A stretch of DNA of 6,337 nt from Candidatus Saccharimonadota bacterium (lineage in GTDB: Bacteria > Pseudomonadota > Gammaproteobacteria > Enterobacterales > Enterobacteriaceae), in assembly GCF_012571795.1 (NCBI RefSeq), contig NZ_CP046223.1, forward strand, positions 1 to 6,337. The letters run 5' to 3'. The translations under genes were made by a program, and so were the position numbers. Of the stretch, positions 1 through 6,267 are shown one piece after another (position 1 is the first letter of the stretch; each line of letters begins with the position of its first letter). The notes under the pieces were generated by a model, which was not told the DNA's origin, did no database searches, and was given only the letters and a program-made list of their open reading frames with translations.

Positions 1-63
1 ATGAAAAAATACGCAAATTTCTTAAAAATCATTTTTTGTTCTAGTACACTTGTTTCTTTTGCA
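1..63 (+). other. Predicted Sec signal peptide of the adhesin (MKKYANFLKIIFCSSTLVSFA | NIF)
   Basis: Basic N-terminus (KK), a hydrophobic core FLKIIFCSSTLV and a small-residue S-F-A cleavage motif. This supports position 1 as the true start codon. Confidence 0.6.
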
Positions 64-2898
64 AATATTTTTATTGTGCATACTATAGTTAACATCAAAA
101 AAATGAATAATGGTTTTATAAATAGTTATATTAAAAAGAAAGGAATACATCGCGATTATGATATAGTATCAAAAATTGTAAATTCTAATTTTTATAAAAA
201 ACAAAAAAGAAAAGTTAATTTGTTAACAAAAGATAGCTTAATGTTAAGAAAAAATAAAGGCAGATTAAGAGCTATTAATACCAAATACATGTTATCAAAT
301 AAAAAATTAAGAACTGAATTTATAAATAAAATATATGTAATAGACAAAATAGTAAAAATTATAAACAACAAACATTATTTTATAAATAAATTAATATCAA
401 TTAATACTATTGATAATAAAAGCACTATTTATATATTAATTACGGAATCAAACACAAAATTAATATCATTATGTAATATGTTATTACATAAAAGTAATAA
501 AACAAGTTTTAATACTATAAACAATAAAAATATACCACAACAAGATCAGAATGACGTTCAAAGAACTCTTAAAACCATTAGAATAAAAAACTATAAAACA
601 ATAGATAATCAAATTAAAAATATTAATAATTTTTTTAATTCCATAAATATAAAAAATTATAAGAGTTCATTAGGTATTATGTTTGCTAACAAAATTCCTA
701 CAATTATTAAATTAAACCTAAAAATTTTTGCCCCTATTATAGATAAAAAGGATTTTTTATTTTTTATACAAAATAATTTTAATTTTCTTAATCAAAGAAA
801 ACAAATAAATATAGGTTTAGGTATAAGAAAATTTTTCTCACAACAAAATTGTTTGCTAGGAGCAAACAATTTTGTTGATTATGACTTAACATTAAAACAA
901 AAAAGAATAGGTTTTGGCATCGAATTTTGGCAACCATTAATAAAATTAAATGCTAATATTTATATCGGTCTAAATGGATGGAAACAGATACAAGCCCCTA
1001 ATAAAAATTATACAGAACAAATTACTACAAAAAATAATATAATTATGGCAAGACCAGTAAATGGATTTGACATAATAGCAACAGGATCTATTCCAAAAAT
1101 CCCTAAAATTATATTTAATTTGAAATATAATAAAAATTTTCATAACTACTTTTTTAACAAAATCCAAAAAAATATAGAAAAAAATAAAATAAAATATCCG
1201 TCAATTTTTTCTTTTGGTATTAATTATCAAATAAACTCAATATTAAATATTATATTAGAAAAAGAAATAAATGGGGGAGAAAATAATACAACATTAGGAA
1301 TAGGTTTAAATTTAAATTTAAATAAATCAATAAATGAACAAACACATAATAACAAAAATCAATACACAAATAATTTTAATAAATTAAATAAATACGATTT
1401 TGTAAATAGAAATGATAATATTATTATAGAATATATAGATAAAAAAATCGAAAAAGTTAGTATAAAAAATACAAATATTATTAATTATCCTAGTACTAAT
1501 AATATTATTGAAATATATAATGCAAAATTAATAAAAAATATCGAATTCAAATATAATAATAATTTTTTAATAAATAAGGGTAAAATTGTTAATAATAATA
1601 ATAATAATATTATAGTTATTTTACCAAAATATATTAGTAAGAATAATTCAGATAATAAATTAAATAATCAGCAAAATAACTATAATATTAAAGTTATAAT
1701 AGAAGATATTTACAAAAACAAACAAAATTTTGAAATAAAAATTCAAGTATTATGCCCTACTAAACAACAAATAGATCAAAATAAATCTATATTAAAAATA
1801 TGTACAGATAATACAAAATATAAAATACCCAAAAATATAAAAGTATGTTTTTATGCAAAAGATAAAAATAATAATGCTATTTCTAATATTCGAGATATTA
1901 AATTTATTGTAAAAAATAAAGATATAGAAACACAATTTACAAATATTACAGAAAAACCATTAGGAGTTTATTGTACTGATATACTTATTAATACTATAGG
2001 TGAAAATATTATTAAAGTAAAAATTAATAATAATACATATGAAAATTTATCAAAAAAAGTAATTTTTACTGGTAATAATGAAATTACTAACTTATATATT
2101 TTTAATGAAAAAACAACATATAAAGCTAAAATATCTGATCATGTTAACTTAAAATTAAAAATTATTACTGAAGATAAAGATGCAATTACAAAACCACAAA
2201 GTATAATTATAAAAACCTTATCTATAAAAAATAGACAACAGATAGATATGAAAAATAACATTAATGTAAAACCAAAACCATTACATATTAAAAATTTAAA
2301 AACTAATATAACTTTAATTAATAATGATTATAAGTTTATGACAGATGAAAATGGAGAACTACATTTACAAATATCTAGTCCTGATGGTTTAGGTGTAAAA
2401 ACAACACTGAGTATTAATATAAACAACAATAATAAAATAATTAAAATTATAAATTTTATATTTACAGTACCAACAAGCCCAGACATAGATAAAGCAAATA
2501 TGTATGGACACATGCAAGATACTATTATGTCTAATAATATTACTTTACATAGACCTCCACTATATGCAGAATATATAGGAGGAAAAAATGATAAGTTGTA
2601 TTATTCGAATGAATATTGGTCTATTTTAGATTATGATAATGCTAAAAAATATTGTAAAAGTATCAATGGCACTTTACCTTCTAAAGAAACTTTAATCAAA
2701 TTTAACAAAAATTTAAATAATTATGATTTATTAAATATTTATGGTTGGCCAATATATAGTAAACGCACATCATTTATATGGTCTTCATCTATAGATAATA
2801 ATAATAATATGAAATATTATTATTATGTTGATTTATTAAACAATAAAATTTTTAAGGGATTATCAAGTAGTACTTATAATGTTTTTTGCGAAATTTAA
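1..2898 (+). CDS. Inverse autotransporter adhesin, intimin/invasin family (signal peptide, beta-barrel translocator, Ig-like passenger repeats, C-terminal lectin-like domain)
   Basis: A 965-aa ORF uninterrupted in roughly 80% AT DNA. Family-specific barrel motifs are present: LLGANNFVDYD...RIGFGIEFW...LKLNANIYIGLNGWK (aa 285-328; intimin has LGYNVFIDQDF...RLGIGGEYWRDY...NGYFRMSGW), ARPVNGFDI (aa 350-358; intimin ERPANGFDI) and the pore-linker KYDFVNRNDNIIIEY (aa 464-478; intimin SRYDLVQRNNNIILEY). The C-terminus LDYDNAKKYCKSINGTLPSKETL...VFCEI parallels intimin VTYNDAVNTCKNFGGKLPSSQNEL...ATCVK. Confidence 0.85.
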   Translation: MKKYANFLKIIFCSSTLVSFANIFIVHTIVNIKKMNNGFINSYIKKKGIHRDYDIVSKIVNSNFYKKQKRKVNLLTKDSLMLRKNKGRLRAINTKYMLSNKKLRTEFINKIYVIDKIVKIINNKHYFINKLISINTIDNKSTIYILITESNTKLISLCNMLLHKSNKTSFNTINNKNIPQQDQNDVQRTLKTIRIKNYKTIDNQIKNINNFFNSINIKNYKSSLGIMFANKIPTIIKLNLKIFAPIIDKKDFLFFIQNNFNFLNQRKQINIGLGIRKFFSQQNCLLGANNFVDYDLTLKQKRIGFGIEFWQPLIKLNANIYIGLNGWKQIQAPNKNYTEQITTKNNIIMARPVNGFDIIATGSIPKIPKIIFNLKYNKNFHNYFFNKIQKNIEKNKIKYPSIFSFGINYQINSILNIILEKEINGGENNTTLGIGLNLNLNKSINEQTHNNKNQYTNNFNKLNKYDFVNRNDNIIIEYIDKKIEKVSIKNTNIINYPSTNNIIEIYNAKLIKNIEFKYNNNFLINKGKIVNNNNNNIIVILPKYISKNNSDNKLNNQQNNYNIKVIIEDIYKNKQNFEIKIQVLCPTKQQIDQNKSILKICTDNTKYKIPKNIKVCFYAKDKNNNAISNIRDIKFIVKNKDIETQFTNITEKPLGVYCTDILINTIGENIIKVKINNNTYENLSKKVIFTGNNEITNLYIFNEKTTYKAKISDHVNLKLKIITEDKDAITKPQSIIIKTLSIKNRQQIDMKNNINVKPKPLHIKNLKTNITLINNDYKFMTDENGELHLQISSPDGLGVKTTLSININNNNKIIKIINFIFTVPTSPDIDKANMYGHMQDTIMSNNITLHRPPLYAEYIGGKNDKLYYSNEYWSILDYDNAKKYCKSINGTLPSKETLIKFNKNLNNYDLLNIYGWPIYSKRTSFIWSSSIDNNNNMKYYYYVDLLNNKIFKGLSSSTYNVFCEI
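643..1446 (+). other. Inverse-autotransporter beta-barrel domain plus pore-traversing linker (approx aa 215-482)
   Basis: Alternating hydrophobic beta-strand pattern plus the conserved intimin/invasin barrel motifs at nt 853-885, 1051-1074 and 1393-1434. Boundaries are approximate. Confidence 0.7.
1765..2475 (+). other. Two probable bacterial Ig-like (Big_1-type) passenger domains (approx aa 589-825)
   Basis: Two segments of about 100 aa each follow the Big_1 pattern: 'V.FYAKDKNNNAISNI.DIKF' ... 'GVY.TDILINTIGENIIKVKINN' and 'LKLKIITEDKDAIT' ... 'TDENGELHLQISSPDGLGVKTTLSINI'. The sequences are highly diverged and the boundaries are uncertain. Confidence 0.45.
2476..2895 (+). other. C-terminal C-type-lectin-like (intimin D3 / invasin D5-like) ligand-binding domain
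   Basis: Cys885 (tgt, 2653-2655) and Cys963 (tgc, 2887-2889) lie 78 residues apart. The second Cys is two residues from the C-terminus, matching my recollection of the intimin disulphide (Cys860/Cys937 of 939 aa). The conserved 'YxxA..xCK...G.LPS...L' motif is present. Confidence 0.7.
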
Positions 2899-3008: not shown

Positions 3009-3098
3009 ATGAAAAAATTATTTTTCTATAAAAAAATATTGCAAAAAACAGTTATTTTAGCTATAGCATTATTTTTATTTCATACTAAATTATTTGCT
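3009..3098 (+). other. Predicted Sec signal peptide of the polygalacturonase (…LFHTKLFA | EDKRHVQEP)
   Basis: Basic N-terminus (KK..KK), the hydrophobic stretch TVILAIALFLF, and an A at -1. The predicted mature N-terminus aligns with the mature N-terminus of PehA. Confidence 0.65.
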
Positions 3099-4283
3099 GA
3101 AGATAAACGTCATGTACAAGAACCAATTATACCTAAAACTTGTAAAATTTTAGAAGCAAATGATCAAGATTCAACAAATATCTTACAACAAGCAATTAAT
3201 GTTTGTGCTAAACAACATCAAATTGTTCATTTAATATCTCATAATAATAAAAATATTTTTTACTCAGGTCCTTTAAATATCCCTTCTTATGGTGGTCTTT
3301 TAATTGATAAAACAGTAATATTAAAATCTATAAATGACCCTAATCTTTATAATATTAATAATAATCAAGATTGTGGTACATTAAATAATTCTGGTAAGGG
3401 ATGTAAACCATTTATTACTATTAATGGTGAAAATAATGGTATTTATGGCAATGGTTATATAGATGGACAAGGAGGGCATATTTTAAAAAATAAAAATTTT
3501 ACCTGGTGGCAATTAGCTACAGAAGCTAAATTAAAAAATAAAAAACAAAATGCTCCACATTTAATTGATATTAATAATAGTAAAGACGTTGTTTTATATA
3601 AAATTCATTTAATAAATTCACCAAATTTTCATATTGTTTCTCATAAAACAAATGGTTTAACAATCTGGGGTATTAGTATTAATACCCCAGCAGATGCACG
3701 TAATACTGATGGTATCGACCCCTCATCTTCACAAAATATAACTATTACACACACTAATATTAGTACTGGAGATGATAATATTGCAATAAAAGCAGGTAGT
3801 ACAGGAGAATCAAAAAATATTAGTATTATAAATAATAATTTTGGATATGGTCATGGTATGTCTATAGGCAGTGAAACACAAAGTGGTGTAAATAATATTT
3901 TAATAACAAATTTATCTTTAATAAATACTACAAATGGGTTAAGAATTAAAAGTGATAGTACAAAAGGTGGATTAGTAAATAACATATATTATAAAAATAT
4001 TTGCATGTTTAATGTTAAAAATCCTATTGTTTTAGATGCATTTTATAAAATTGTAAAAATAAATGGGGAACATATTCCTCAATTTAATAATATATATTTT
4101 GAAAATATTAGTGTATTAACACCAGGGCAATTTGTTTTTAATGGTTTTGATGTTAATCATATTATACAAGTTTTTTTTAAAAATATACATATACATCCTG
4201 GATCTATATGGACAAAACATAATGTTCATATTAATGGATCTATAAACTATGATACTAATGCAGATCATTGCCCTAATATGTAA
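3009..4283 (+). CDS. pehA: Secreted endo-polygalacturonase, glycoside hydrolase family 28 (PehA-like pectinase)
   Basis: All GH28 signatures are present and in frame: NTDGID (3702-3719), GDD in TGDDNIAIKAG (3768-3776), GHGMSIGS (3849-3872) and RIK in GLRIKS (3942-3950). The protein is collinear end to end with my recollection of Pectobacterium carotovorum PehA, for example EPIIPKTCKIL vs EPKTPSSCTTL, GKGCKPFIT vs GKGCDAFIT, IDGQGG, KQNAPHLIDINNSK vs KQNTPRLIQINKSK and LINSPNFH in both. Confidence 0.93.
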   Translation: MKKLFFYKKILQKTVILAIALFLFHTKLFAEDKRHVQEPIIPKTCKILEANDQDSTNILQQAINVCAKQHQIVHLISHNNKNIFYSGPLNIPSYGGLLIDKTVILKSINDPNLYNINNNQDCGTLNNSGKGCKPFITINGENNGIYGNGYIDGQGGHILKNKNFTWWQLATEAKLKNKKQNAPHLIDINNSKDVVLYKIHLINSPNFHIVSHKTNGLTIWGISINTPADARNTDGIDPSSSQNITITHTNISTGDDNIAIKAGSTGESKNISIINNNFGYGHGMSIGSETQSGVNNILITNLSLINTTNGLRIKSDSTKGGLVNNIYYKNICMFNVKNPIVLDAFYKIVKINGEHIPQFNNIYFENISVLTPGQFVFNGFDVNHIIQVFFKNIHIHPGSIWTKHNVHINGSINYDTNADHCPNM

Positions 4284-4288
4284 TTTTA

Positions 4289-4936
4289 TTAAGGAGAATT
4301 AATTACAATAAAACGAGTTTTATTATTAATAATATTAGATATATTATGTTTTATTACATATAAATTATAGAACTTAGCTGCTATTTTATTACTAATAGCA
4401 GCTAAGTTACTATTTGTGTTACAGAATGATATATATTGTAATGCATAAGAAGAACTAGAAGAATATTTAATATTCCATGAATATTTCTTAATAAACATAC
4501 TACATTGCTTTAATGGTTGAGGGTGACTAATAATGGTTGTAATATTATTTAAAATTAAATTATTGTTATTACTAATTAAACAATGGTTAATAGGCATATC
4601 AAAATAAAAGAATATTTTTACACTATTTTTTTGTATCAATGTATATACATCTTTTATTATACCAGTATAATTATTTATTAAAGGCACTATAGAATAGTGA
4701 GCAACTTTTAATTTTAGAGTATGAAATATTTCTATAAAGTTATTACAAATAATATTAATAATAATATCTGTATTGTTTTTTAAATGTTTTTTTATATAGT
4801 ATAGAGTTGCTAAATGTGAATAACTACCAATAGGTCCTAAAAAAGAAAAAGTAATAATATTATTACTTTTTCTAAATTCTTTATTATTTAATAAAGAATT
4901 ATACTGTATATATAAAATATTATTTTTAATAGACAT
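4289..4936 (-). CDS. pheA: Prephenate dehydratase catalytic domain only (PheA P-protein derivative lacking the chorismate mutase and ACT domains)
   Basis: FLGPIGSYSH (4814-4843; E. coli FLGPKGSYSH), IVPLINNYTGIIKDVY (E. coli VVPIENTSSGAINDVY), ISHPQPLKQCSMFIKKY (SHPQP at 4514-4528; E. coli YSHPQPFQQCSKFLNRY) and the catalytic TRF motif (4310-4318). The ORF ends 6 codons after TRF. Only about 27 aa precede the PDT domain. Confidence 0.8.
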   Translation of the reverse strand: MSIKNNILYIQYNSLLNNKEFRKSNNIITFSFLGPIGSYSHLATLYYIKKHLKNNTDIIINIICNNFIEIFHTLKLKVAHYSIVPLINNYTGIIKDVYTLIQKNSVKIFFYFDMPINHCLISNNNNLILNNITTIISHPQPLKQCSMFIKKYSWNIKYSSSSSYALQYISFCNTNSNLAAISNKIAAKFYNLYVIKHNISNIINNKTRFIVINSP

Positions 4937-5029: not shown

Positions 5030-5920
5030 TTATTTTTTAATTATATGCACAAAATCATTCTTATCGATCCAACATTTCCATCCTGTTGCTTTATTGACAT
5101 CTAATAATGATTTTTTTAAATTTTGTCTAAATTTCCATAATAATTTAGTTGTACTACCACATAATTTATTTAATGTACTTACTTTATAACACAAAGGAAT
5201 TTTATGTGAACAATAAAAACAATGTATCCATTGAGATAAATATTTGCCTTTTAATTGTTTTCTTTCTTTTAAAGAAATTGCTGTCCACATTTCATCAGTA
5301 AAAAATGTTACTATCTTCTTATTTAAAACAATAACATGTTTTTTATTATTATTAATATTTCTATACCATTCATGTAATAAATGACCTATATAAAAACTAT
5401 TCTGATAACTAATTTCTATAACACATATAGATAATCTTAATAAACAAGATTTTAACCATTTATAATCTTTAGTCCCAGTACTTCTATCTATAGAACGTAA
5501 AAATGAATAAGTAGAAAATTCTACTTTATCACCTATAGGAACAGTATACCTATGTAAACATTCTAACCAAACATCTAAATCTGATTGATCTAATTGTTCT
5601 CCAGTAAAACGTATATATATACCCTGTAAAGAAAATTTTAAAATATTTTTTTCATATTTACGCTGTCCTTTCTTAATAACACTAAATAGAGAACTACGTA
5701 ACATAATATTAGGAATCACTCTCTTACTGTGTGATAAAAATGGTATAACATTATTATTTTCGTCATAATCTAAATGATAATTAACATTTTTTTTTGATTT
5801 ATAACGTACTAAGACTGATTTATCTTTAGCATTATTGCTAAAGCAATAATGCTTATTGTTATCATTATAGTTCGCTTTTTGAACTAAAGAATTTATTCTA
5901 TCGTATATTGATTTACACAT
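5030..5920 (-). CDS. trfA: Plasmid replication initiator, TrfA family
   Basis: IPNIMLRSSLFSVIKKGQRKY...IRFTGEQLDQSDLDVWLECLH and LSQWIHCFYCSH..P..YKVSTLNKLCGS...LWKFRQNLKKSL match the conserved TrfA blocks as recalled (PN..LRSALF...R.Y...I.YTG..LDQ.DLDVW and LAQWLH.FY.SH..P...KVETL..LCGS....FR..L..AL). The gene lies 140 bp from a tandem iteron array. Confidence 0.85.
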   Translation of the reverse strand: MCKSIYDRINSLVQKANYNDNNKHYCFSNNAKDKSVLVRYKSKKNVNYHLDYDENNNVIPFLSHSKRVIPNIMLRSSLFSVIKKGQRKYEKNILKFSLQGIYIRFTGEQLDQSDLDVWLECLHRYTVPIGDKVEFSTYSFLRSIDRSTGTKDYKWLKSCLLRLSICVIEISYQNSFYIGHLLHEWYRNINNNKKHVIVLNKKIVTFFTDEMWTAISLKERKQLKGKYLSQWIHCFYCSHKIPLCYKVSTLNKLCGSTTKLLWKFRQNLKKSLLDVNKATGWKCWIDKNDFVHIIKK

Positions 5921-6047: not shown

Positions 6048-6060
6048 TAGATTTAATCAT

Positions 6061-6170
6061 CAGGATAGCAAGTAGCAATAATCAGGATAGCAAGTAGCAA
6101 TAATCAGGATAGCAAGTAGCAATAATCAGGATAGCAAGTAGCAATAATCAGGATAGCAAGTAGCAATAAT
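6061..6170. repeat. Replication-origin iterons: five perfect tandem 22-bp direct repeats (CAGGATAGCAAGTAGCAATAAT)
   Basis: Units start at 6061, 6083, 6105, 6127 and 6149. All are identical and contiguous with no spacers. Each unit contains two TAGCAA half-sites 7 bp apart. The array is adjacent to a TrfA-family rep gene. Confidence 0.9.
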
Positions 6171-6230
6171 CATTTATAATCATTTATAATCATTTATAAT
6201 CATTTATAATCATTTATAATAATTTATAAT
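6171..6230. repeat. Five perfect plus one degenerate tandem 10-bp repeats (CATTTATAAT); probable DNA-unwinding element of the origin
   Basis: Perfect copies sit at 6171, 6181, 6191, 6201 and 6211, with a variant AATTTATAAT at 6221. The repeats are 90% A+T, have a period close to one helical turn and directly abut the iterons. Confidence 0.75.
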
Positions 6231-6238
6231 AAAATCAA

Positions 6239-6267
6239 TTGACAAAAAAGAAATAATGGTTTATGAT
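6239..6267 (+). promoter_or_regulatory. Near-consensus sigma70 promoter TTGACA-N17-TATGAT reading rightward out of the origin
   Basis: The -35 TTGACA is at 6239-6244, the spacer is exactly 17 nt and the -10 TATGAT is at 6262-6267. It is oriented toward the window end, and would point at ORF1 at position 1 if the molecule is circular. Confidence 0.55.

Follow-up and report, generated by a model that had tools for sequence, protein, structure and literature searches.

An intact InvE-type inverse autotransporter on the minimal plasmids of reed-beetle endosymbionts is a candidate host-directed adhesin

Type Ve secretion, as known for intimin and invasin, involves Sec, BamA and the threading of a passenger through the outer membrane barrel (reviewed in PMC6555100 and PMC4943183). 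Here we analyze a member of this class, an inverse autotransporter (IAT), encoded in a stretch of DNA of 6337 bp (the window in what follows) that is the complete circular plasmid of the endosymbiont of the reed beetle Neohaemonia nigricornis (Donaciinae), 'Candidatus Macropleicola'. The plasmid is extremely AT-rich (GC 0.14 to 0.26 in the window) and carries four genes, which encode the IAT, a GH28 polygalacturonase (pectinase), a prephenate dehydratase ('pheA') and the replication initiator TrfA; the chromosome of this symbiont comprises 471,617 bp (PMC7289800). The IAT gene accounts for 45.7% of the window, and its product is identical to WP_211080557.1, already annotated in RefSeq under the name 'inverse autotransporter beta domain-containing protein'; it also appears, without discussion, in one supplementary table. 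Invasin, intimin, adhesin and autotransporter are unmentioned in the main text of Reis et al. 2020 (PMC7289800) and in that of a 2025 study (PMC12508126), and a literature search produced nothing linking Donaciinae or Stammera symbionts to invasin/autotransporter-type proteins. Our favored interpretation, to which we assign a probability of roughly 0.6, is that the protein is a host-directed adhesin involved in adhesion or colonization by the obligate reed-beetle symbiont.

Comparison with the described IATs places the plasmid-encoded protein next to InvE of Yersinia pseudotuberculosis (Protein Data Bank (PDB) 5N40), which is likewise an IAT with a BIg21 domain followed by an InvE_AD domain that contains two conserved cysteines, although the aligned identity is only about 20%, and the protein described here comes from an obligate insect mutualist and is encoded in DNA of 19% GC. 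The structure of Yersinia InvE was reportedly described by Sadana et al. in 2017 (Protein Science), with no ligand found; InvE is not known to have a ligand, so that the match to 5N40 gives the fold of the symbiont protein but not its function. The 'putative invasin' of Xenorhabdus poinarii (CDG22986.1/WP_045959865.1) is of nearly equal length and shares the succession of IAT_beta, two Big domains, BIg21 and InvE_AD (BLASTP identity of 26% over aa 242-675 and 31% over aa 777-950); it differs in the presence of LysM and of recognizable Invasin_D3/Big_1 domains, neither of which is found by Pfam in the symbiont protein. Similar uncharacterized proteins of about 970-1020 aa are present in free-living Enterobacterales, and given these collinear homologs, the symbiont IAT appears to be an ordinary enterobacterial invasin, inherited and eroded toward AT, rather than a new invention. 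The best non-symbiont matches to the C-terminal third come from the Salmonella adhesins of the RatA/RatB/SivH type (DUF823/DUF824), which also combine BIg21 with InvE_AD but are 1800-2700 aa long and repeat this module 4-9 times, whereas the symbiont protein has a single, terminal copy.

The relationship with the two best characterized members of the class is limited to a part of the molecule. Yersinia InvA (4E1T, 1CWV), the functional model for zipper-type uptake, resembles the symbiont protein in the barrel and linker (E = 3e-19; template modeling (TM) score 0.83), the rod of immunoglobulin (Ig)-like domains, the lectin-like cap with its disulfide (predicted in the symbiont protein) and the lack of LysM. 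The InvA cap, however, belongs to another family, the symbiont protein scores only 83 against a cut-off of 710 on the NCBIfam Inv model and has no Invasin_D3, and the invasin passenger (1CWV) matches it in general fold only (TM 0.22). Judging by sequence, this is not a classical integrin-binding invasin, and integrin binding cannot be assumed. Intimin (Eae) of enteropathogenic and enterohemorrhagic Escherichia coli (4E1S, 1F00) shares the barrel and linker (E = 2e-18; TM 0.83) and the overall topology, but LysM, Big_1/Big_2 and Intimin_C were not found in the symbiont protein at E <= 1, and the NCBIfam intimin_all model gives 71 bits against a cut-off of 1400. The lack of LysM, Big_1 and Intimin_C indicates that the protein is not an intimin; a Tir or type III secretion partner is not expected in a 0.47-Mb genome either. 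Thus, the label 'intimin/invasin-type' that the first-pass annotation attached to this gene holds for the barrel and the linker but not for the cap, which is InvE-type, and the Big_1 (PF02369) and Intimin_C (PF07979) domains that it anticipated in the passenger were both absent from the Pfam results at E <= 1. As far as can be judged from sequence and structural modeling, the protein is an IAT of the InvE-type subgroup (BIg21 + InvE_AD), with barrel, linker and passenger all recognizable. Its gene and parts are as follows.

1..2898, plus strand: IAT adhesin gene, type Ve inverse autotransporter, 965 aa plus stop, ATG start (Pfam, PDB matches and structural model)
1..66, plus strand: putative Sec signal peptide, aa 1 to about 22, MKKYANFLKIIFCSSTLVSFA with cleavage before N (by eye)
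67..660, plus strand: N-terminal low-complexity region, presumably periplasmic, aa 23 to about 220 (low model confidence, no Pfam match)
661..1320, plus strand: predicted outer-membrane beta-barrel translocator, aa about 221-440 (IAT_beta, 4E1T/4E1S, Foldseek)
1321..1434, plus strand: predicted pore linker ending in KYDFVNRNDNIIIEY (aa 464-478, nt 1390-1434; alignment to invasin and intimin, model helices)
1435..2106, plus strand: two predicted Ig-like passenger domains, aa about 479-583 and 597-700 (all-beta in the model)
2116..2481, plus strand: third Ig-like domain, BIg21 (PF05688, model strands 706-827)
2479..2889, plus strand: InvE-type, C-type-lectin-like adhesion domain (the cap), aa 827-963 (PF05689, 5N40 profile, Foldseek)
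2653-2655 and 2887-2889, plus strand: Cys885 and Cys963 of the cap, aligned to both cysteines of InvE 5N40

The IAT open reading frame (ORF) contains no in-frame stops, whereas 1000 shuffles gave 103 on average and never fewer than 76; the other five frames over the gene contain 37-170 stops, and an in-frame stop is located 13 codons 5' of the ATG when the sequence is read across the circular junction. Pfam recovers IAT_beta (PF11924, aa 186-471, E = 1.2e-37, 130.5 bits against a cut-off of 22.3), BIg21 (PF05688, aa 717-823, E = 6.8e-14, 52.8 bits against 27.4) and InvE_AD (PF05689, aa 827-963, E = 7.5e-25, 88.3 bits against 32), with no further match in the whole protein at E <= 1. At the sequence level, the nearest PDB entries are the barrels of invasin (4E1T) and intimin (4E1S) as well as InvE 5N40, which matches the C-terminal BIg21 + InvE_AD module by profile (E = 1.4e-31). 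The AlphaFold2 model, derived from a 70-sequence alignment (mean predicted local distance difference test (pLDDT) score of 77.9), is confident from the barrel through the C-terminus; it places the strands of the barrel between 221 and 439, helices of the linker at 444-460 and three Ig-like domains at 476-583, 597-700 and 706-827. The cap (836-965) is of the alpha/beta type and has pLDDT above 90. A Foldseek search of the PDB with this model retrieved InvE 5N40 as the top match (E = 4e-24, TM 0.63), then the invasin and intimin barrels (0.83 being the target TM), followed by the invasin passenger 1CWV, InvD, FdeC and intimin 1F00. The first-pass annotation, made from the sequence alone, had described a gene of about 2.9 kb that fills nearly half of a minimal plasmid and encodes a full-length IAT, with a barrel, a linker, Ig-like domains, a lectin-like cap and a Cys885/Cys963 pair, and had pointed to the IAT_beta profile and to superposition on the invasin and intimin structures as checks; all of this is borne out by the ORF, the Pfam and PDB alignments and the model, and the IAT is indeed full-length and intact in a drastically reduced mutualist (chromosome of about 0.47 Mb).

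Individual regions of the protein differ in how readily they are recognized. The N-terminus, as read by eye, consists of MKK, a hydrophobic stretch (maximum 12-aa Kyte-Doolittle value of 1.98) and SFA/N with a small residue at -1, and would be cleaved as a Sec signal peptide; signal-like N-terminal segments were noted also in four orthologs, by eye and from Kyte-Doolittle values. The region that follows is modeled with low confidence (pLDDT below 50 for aa 43-196). No LysM, degenerate versions included, was detected in this protein or in three orthologs, and the N-terminal regions of four orthologs yielded no Pfam match at E <= 10. In the barrel, 50 of the 241 alignment columns are invariant across the four host genera. 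The linker motif KYDFVNRNDNIIIEY aligns with RYNLVDRNNNIVLEY of invasin and RYDLVQRNNNIILEY of intimin and fits the (R/K)YD.V.RNNNI.LEY type; YDFVNRN, I474, E477 and Y478 are invariant in four orthologs. The first two Ig-like domains are detected by no Pfam model, but are modeled with pLDDT mostly of 80-94, match invasin 1CWV, FdeC 4E9L and intimin D0-D1 (6TPL) in Foldseek and are collinear (aa about 479-700) with the Invasin_D3/Big_1 region of the Xenorhabdus homolog.

Conservation of the IAT gene extends to all four host genera. The frames were checked at the DNA level in the symbionts of N. nigricornis, Macroplea mutica, Plateumaris pusilla and Donacia dentata, whereas M. appendiculata was represented by a protein sequence. 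The orthologs are intact in M. mutica (926 aa, with an N-terminal signal-like segment; plasmid NZ_CP046219.1), P. pusilla (a 935-aa ORF, annotated as 896 aa) and D. dentata (969 aa), and that of M. appendiculata is a full-length protein record of 922 aa. None of the four DNA sequences contains a stop over 926-969 codons, where about 100 would be expected, so the decay of orthologs that would have spoken against a functional gene was not observed: the four full-length orthologs are free of stops and frameshifts. The five full-length proteins show 29-42% amino acid identity between genera. A profile search with the C-terminal region additionally identified, in 17 symbiont species, GenBank entries 216-316 aa long that are annotated as 'hypothetical protein'. 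In total, the BIg21 + InvE_AD region is uninterrupted in 20 species, with 28 invariant residues, most of them fold-defining; these include Cys885, Cys963 and all three cap tryptophans (W873, W916 and W927), and the motifs TSP, MYG.M, RP.L..E, NE.W and GWP are invariant in the cap. Among the 20 species covered, out of 26, none was found to lack the IAT gene.

Two features of the database records could be mistaken for decay. The 216-316-aa records might be taken for fragments of a broken gene, but N. nigricornis itself has such a record in spite of its intact ORF, indicating that the short records are old gene calls. These old gene models cover just the C-terminal quarter to third of the IAT gene, so that the expression and orthology tables that depend on them under-describe it. 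Accessions of the WP_2110xxxxx series, apparently from a later RefSeq re-annotation, belong to the full-length models of N. nigricornis, M. appendiculata and D. dentata. Similarly, the M. mutica gene, which is unannotated in PLSDB, is not a pseudogene: its ORF is intact and crosses the start of the circular record, beginning 117 nt before position 1, and it is absent from the PLSDB gene table for that reason.

Expression data are available for sister species. In Dataset EV5 of PMC12508126, the orthogroup HOG0000365, labeled 'IAT', is marked as upregulated in the larvae for both D. marginata and D. versicolorea. The values in Dataset EV4 of the same study show the larval bias in D. marginata (baseMean 6020, log2 fold change (log2FC) -2.57, adjusted P value (padj) 1.9e-24) and D. 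versicolorea (baseMean 36187, log2FC -1.03, padj 0.0048) and no life-stage bias in D. thalassina (baseMean 2769, log2FC +0.21, not significant). In D. versicolorea, the IAT transcript reaches the level of the pectinase, among the highest-expressed genes (PMC12508126), so that transcripts, another of the checks envisaged at the outset, are indeed present in sister species. On the plasmid of this symbiont (about 6.5 kb), GH28 is adult-biased (log2FC +1.72), IAT (-1.03) and pheA (-2.60) are larva-biased, and trfA is unchanged (PMC12508126); the opposite biases of GH28 and IAT imply gene-specific regulation, not just changes in plasmid copy number. Such gene-by-gene control of expression is seen here even though the symbiont has very few regulators and the plasmid is small. 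The machinery that export of an IAT would require is also present in the sister symbionts, for which bamA, surA, degP, dsbA, secY and lepB are listed (tables of PMC12508126). A search of the KEGG-annotated supplementary tables of that study for the terms 'type III secretion', 'fimbria', 'pilus' and 'adhesin' returned no match.

The life cycle of the symbionts provides the setting for these observations. The bacteria are extracellular in the jelly coat of the egg, are then taken into the midgut epithelial cells of the larva and later settle in the Malpighian tubules, both intracellularly and extracellularly (PMC7289800). Given this re-entry into the epithelium in each generation, a conserved, larva-biased, invasin-class adhesin is the obvious candidate for attachment and, possibly, uptake. 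The role in adhesion or colonization suggested by the first-pass annotation is accordingly reasonable and better founded than before, while the protein retains the status of a candidate. A more specific version, in which the protein is a host-cell entry device whose InvE-type cap binds a receptor of the beetle epithelium and triggers uptake into larval midgut-caecum cells every generation, is tentative, and we rate it clearly below even odds.

Under the proposed mechanism, the IAT precursor would be exported by Sec and its signal peptide cut by LepB. In the periplasm, SurA and DegP would act as chaperones, and DsbA would form the disulfide between Cys885 and Cys963. BamA would then insert the N-terminal barrel (aa about 221-440), through which the C-terminal passenger would thread out, leaving the linker (aa 441-478) in the pore. 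The rod of three Ig-like domains would hold the cap (aa 827-963) off the cell surface, and the cap would bind a protein receptor on the beetle epithelium. The symbionts from the jelly coat would in this manner attach to, and probably enter, the cells of the larval midgut caeca and, at a later stage, those of the Malpighian tubules.

Several observations weigh against a host-directed adhesin. The binding of the cap to host epithelium is proposed by analogy with other adhesins, and the expression data come from the sister species alone, rather than from N. nigricornis; in one of these, M. mutica, the read count is close to zero (baseMean 0.5, log2FC +0.02, padj not given, for WP_168895806.1; PMC12508126, Dataset EV4), which may be a counting artifact of an origin-spanning gene and not true silence. 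The promoter call for the IAT gene, made from sequence and discussed below, is weak in DNA this AT-rich. Asn, Lys and Ile account for 45% of the protein, and given this composition, folding competence is not guaranteed; in addition, neither the N-terminal region nor the first two Ig domains are recognized any longer by a Pfam model. Finally, the rate of nonsynonymous substitution (dN), estimated by the Nei-Gojobori method in pairwise comparisons across the four genera, is the highest among the four plasmid genes, 0.50-0.72, compared to 0.41-0.55 for the dehydratase, 0.19-0.31 for trfA and 0.22-0.30 for GH28. The nominal ratio of nonsynonymous to synonymous rates (dN/dS) of the IAT gene, 0.55-0.91, is obtained at saturated synonymous sites (proportion of synonymous differences, pS, of 0.41-0.53 in all four genes) and, being uninterpretable for this reason, is counted as evidence neither way.

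Among the alternatives, the one that survives best, although we regard it as unlikely, is a working adhesin with a non-host target, which would mediate aggregation of the symbionts or their retention in the egg jelly coat, the lumen of the Malpighian tubules or peritrophic material. A part of the symbiont cycle is indeed extracellular, in the jelly coat and the tubule lumen, there is no known host receptor for an InvE-type cap, and the expression in D. thalassina is alike in adults and larvae; furthermore, IATs such as YeeJ promote biofilm formation (PMC5595812), a role that several IATs of E. coli have. The larval bias in 2 of the 4 species, by contrast, coincides with the intracellular stage, and a rod with a single terminal cap is the architecture of host-directed invasins, although this resemblance is suggestive only.

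Less probable still is that the gene is a slowly decaying relic, that is, an ancestral virulence-type adhesin under relaxed selection whose frame happens to remain open, and transcribed, by virtue of its place beside the plasmid origin and a promoter. The highest dN on the plasmid with a nominal dN/dS of up to 0.9, the disorder of the N-terminal region, the failure to detect LysM, Big_1 and Invasin_D3 domains of the free-living homologs and the near-zero read counts in M. mutica are all compatible with such an origin. Yet a neutral 2.9-kb frame in 19%-GC DNA, in which a stop arises by chance at about one codon in nine, would gain stops fast, whereas four frames are open at the DNA level, the fifth ortholog is uninterrupted as a protein record and 20 C-terminal domains are intact, with the cysteines and all three tryptophans of the cap invariant. 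Constraint also depends on the domain: in the close pair of M. mutica and M. appendiculata, in which synonymous sites are not saturated, identity is 87% in the barrel, 82-86% in the Ig domains and 88% in the cap, but 66% in the N-terminal region, which is also the least conserved part of the protein between genera (14-34% identity). In sequence terms, the N-terminal 200 residues are nearly neutral, and the barrel and the cap are not. The high expression of the gene in D. versicolorea argues against a relic as well, and so does the tendency of these genomes to delete useless DNA, as exemplified by the pectinase, lost three times among the symbiont genomes (PMC7289800).

The weakest alternative, a lectin for plant cell-wall or other glycans, as had also been suggested initially, acting as a partner of the adjoining polygalacturonase, draws on the location of the IAT gene, which precedes GH28 by 110 bp in the same orientation, and on the C-type-lectin-like fold of the cap, but is very improbable, considering that direct reading of aa 824-965 reveals none of the calcium-carbohydrate tripeptides EPN, QPD and WND, that the ligands of the related invasin and intimin caps are proteins (beta1-integrins and Tir, respectively), that GH28 and IAT show opposite life-stage biases in D. 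versicolorea, and that IAT is conserved on the GH28-less plasmids of Poales-feeding hosts (PMC7289800).

The other genes of the plasmid, identified from the ORF list and Pfam, are located as follows.

3009-4283, plus strand: GH28 polygalacturonase (pectinase)
4289-4936, minus strand: prephenate dehydratase domain protein ('pheA')
5030-5920, minus strand: TrfA replication initiator

The IAT gene persists on plasmids that have no GH28, namely that of P. pusilla and about nine others of 5.1-5.7 kb. It follows that IAT, trfA and the prephenate dehydratase gene are the three genes found on every plasmid examined, and that the adjacency of IAT and the pectinase, initially considered meaningful, is incidental.

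The plasmid 'pheA' encodes a 215-aa prephenate dehydratase domain alone, which aligns to positions 89-283 of the 386-residue P-protein model NCBIfam NF007910; accordingly, the chorismate mutase part and the C-terminal third are missing. This C-terminal third, which we take to be the regulatory ACT domain, would by its loss abolish the feedback inhibition by phenylalanine. The dehydratase orthologs in M. mutica, P. pusilla and D. dentata are likewise short, at 228-229 aa. Within the dehydratase coding sequence (window positions 4371-4408), there is an inverted repeat, AACTTAGCTGCTATT...AATAGCAGCTAAGTT, whose 15-bp arms match perfectly across a loop of 8 nt; it scored as terminator-like on both strands.

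The sole large intergenic region of the plasmid contains the putative regulatory elements.

6239..6267, plus strand: sigma-70-like promoter match TTGACA-N17-TATGAT; the IAT start follows about 70 bp downstream, beyond the circular junction
6055..6230, no strand assigned: repeats of the plasmid origin, shortly before the IAT promoter match; context, outside the adhesin

The two best promoter matches in the window (11/12) both lie in this region, one facing trfA and the other facing IAT. An equivalent match, TTGACA-N17-TAAAAT, is present at the same position in M. mutica; on visual inspection, P. pusilla has a plausible counterpart, and that in D. dentata is unclear. The window as a whole contains 77 promoter-like matches, compared to 77.4 in shuffled sequences, that is, no excess. 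The origin consists of 5.4 copies of a 22-bp iteron, AATAATCAGGATAGCAAGTAGC, at 6055-6172 and 6.5 copies of a 10-bp AT-rich repeat, ATAATCATTT, at 6166-6230. This RK2-like layout next to trfA is common to the M. mutica, D. dentata and P. pusilla plasmids. The iteron sequence varies by genus, with CATCAGGTTAACTGGTAGTAAA in M. mutica and a unit of the ACGGGATAT.AAGTAGTAAAA type in D. dentata; the same layout with genus-specific iterons suggests that the iterons co-evolve with TrfA.

A segment of trfA (5553-5671; about 115 bp) shows approximately 80% DNA identity to trfA of the Arsenophonus nasoniae plasmids NZ_CP123573.1 and NZ_CP123556.1, which are 32.5 kb long and mobilizable, with type IV secretion genes on the one examined. 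This similarity hints that the minimal symbiont plasmid may descend from a larger plasmid of the Arsenophonus trfA replicon family. No IAT is annotated in the half of the Arsenophonus plasmid that was examined (16.8 of 32.5 kb, surrounding trfA), which hence gives no lead on the origin of the adhesin gene.

Bacteria with eroded genomes of about 0.5 Mb still recognize and, generation after generation, enter the right cells of their hosts by means that are little understood. The reed-beetle symbionts lack type III secretion, pili and most surface proteins, as far as the annotation tables searched show. The IAT gene, as one of the three genes on every plasmid examined in a mutualist of 0.45-0.5 Mb that re-enters host cells, offers a concrete and testable way to approach, at the molecular level, how reed-beetle symbionts are transmitted and which tissues they colonize. 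The published reason for the retention of the plasmid names pheA alone (PMC7289800), and the IAT gene adds to this explanation. Should the protein indeed function in host-cell entry, it would, together with the prephenate dehydratase gene, explain why the plasmid is kept in every Donaciinae symbiont, even where the pectinase has been lost. The symbiont protein would also provide an entry point to the ligand of the InvE/RatA/SivH family of adhesion domains of enteric pathogens, and if the entry role is confirmed, the first receptor for the InvE_AD domain family would be revealed.

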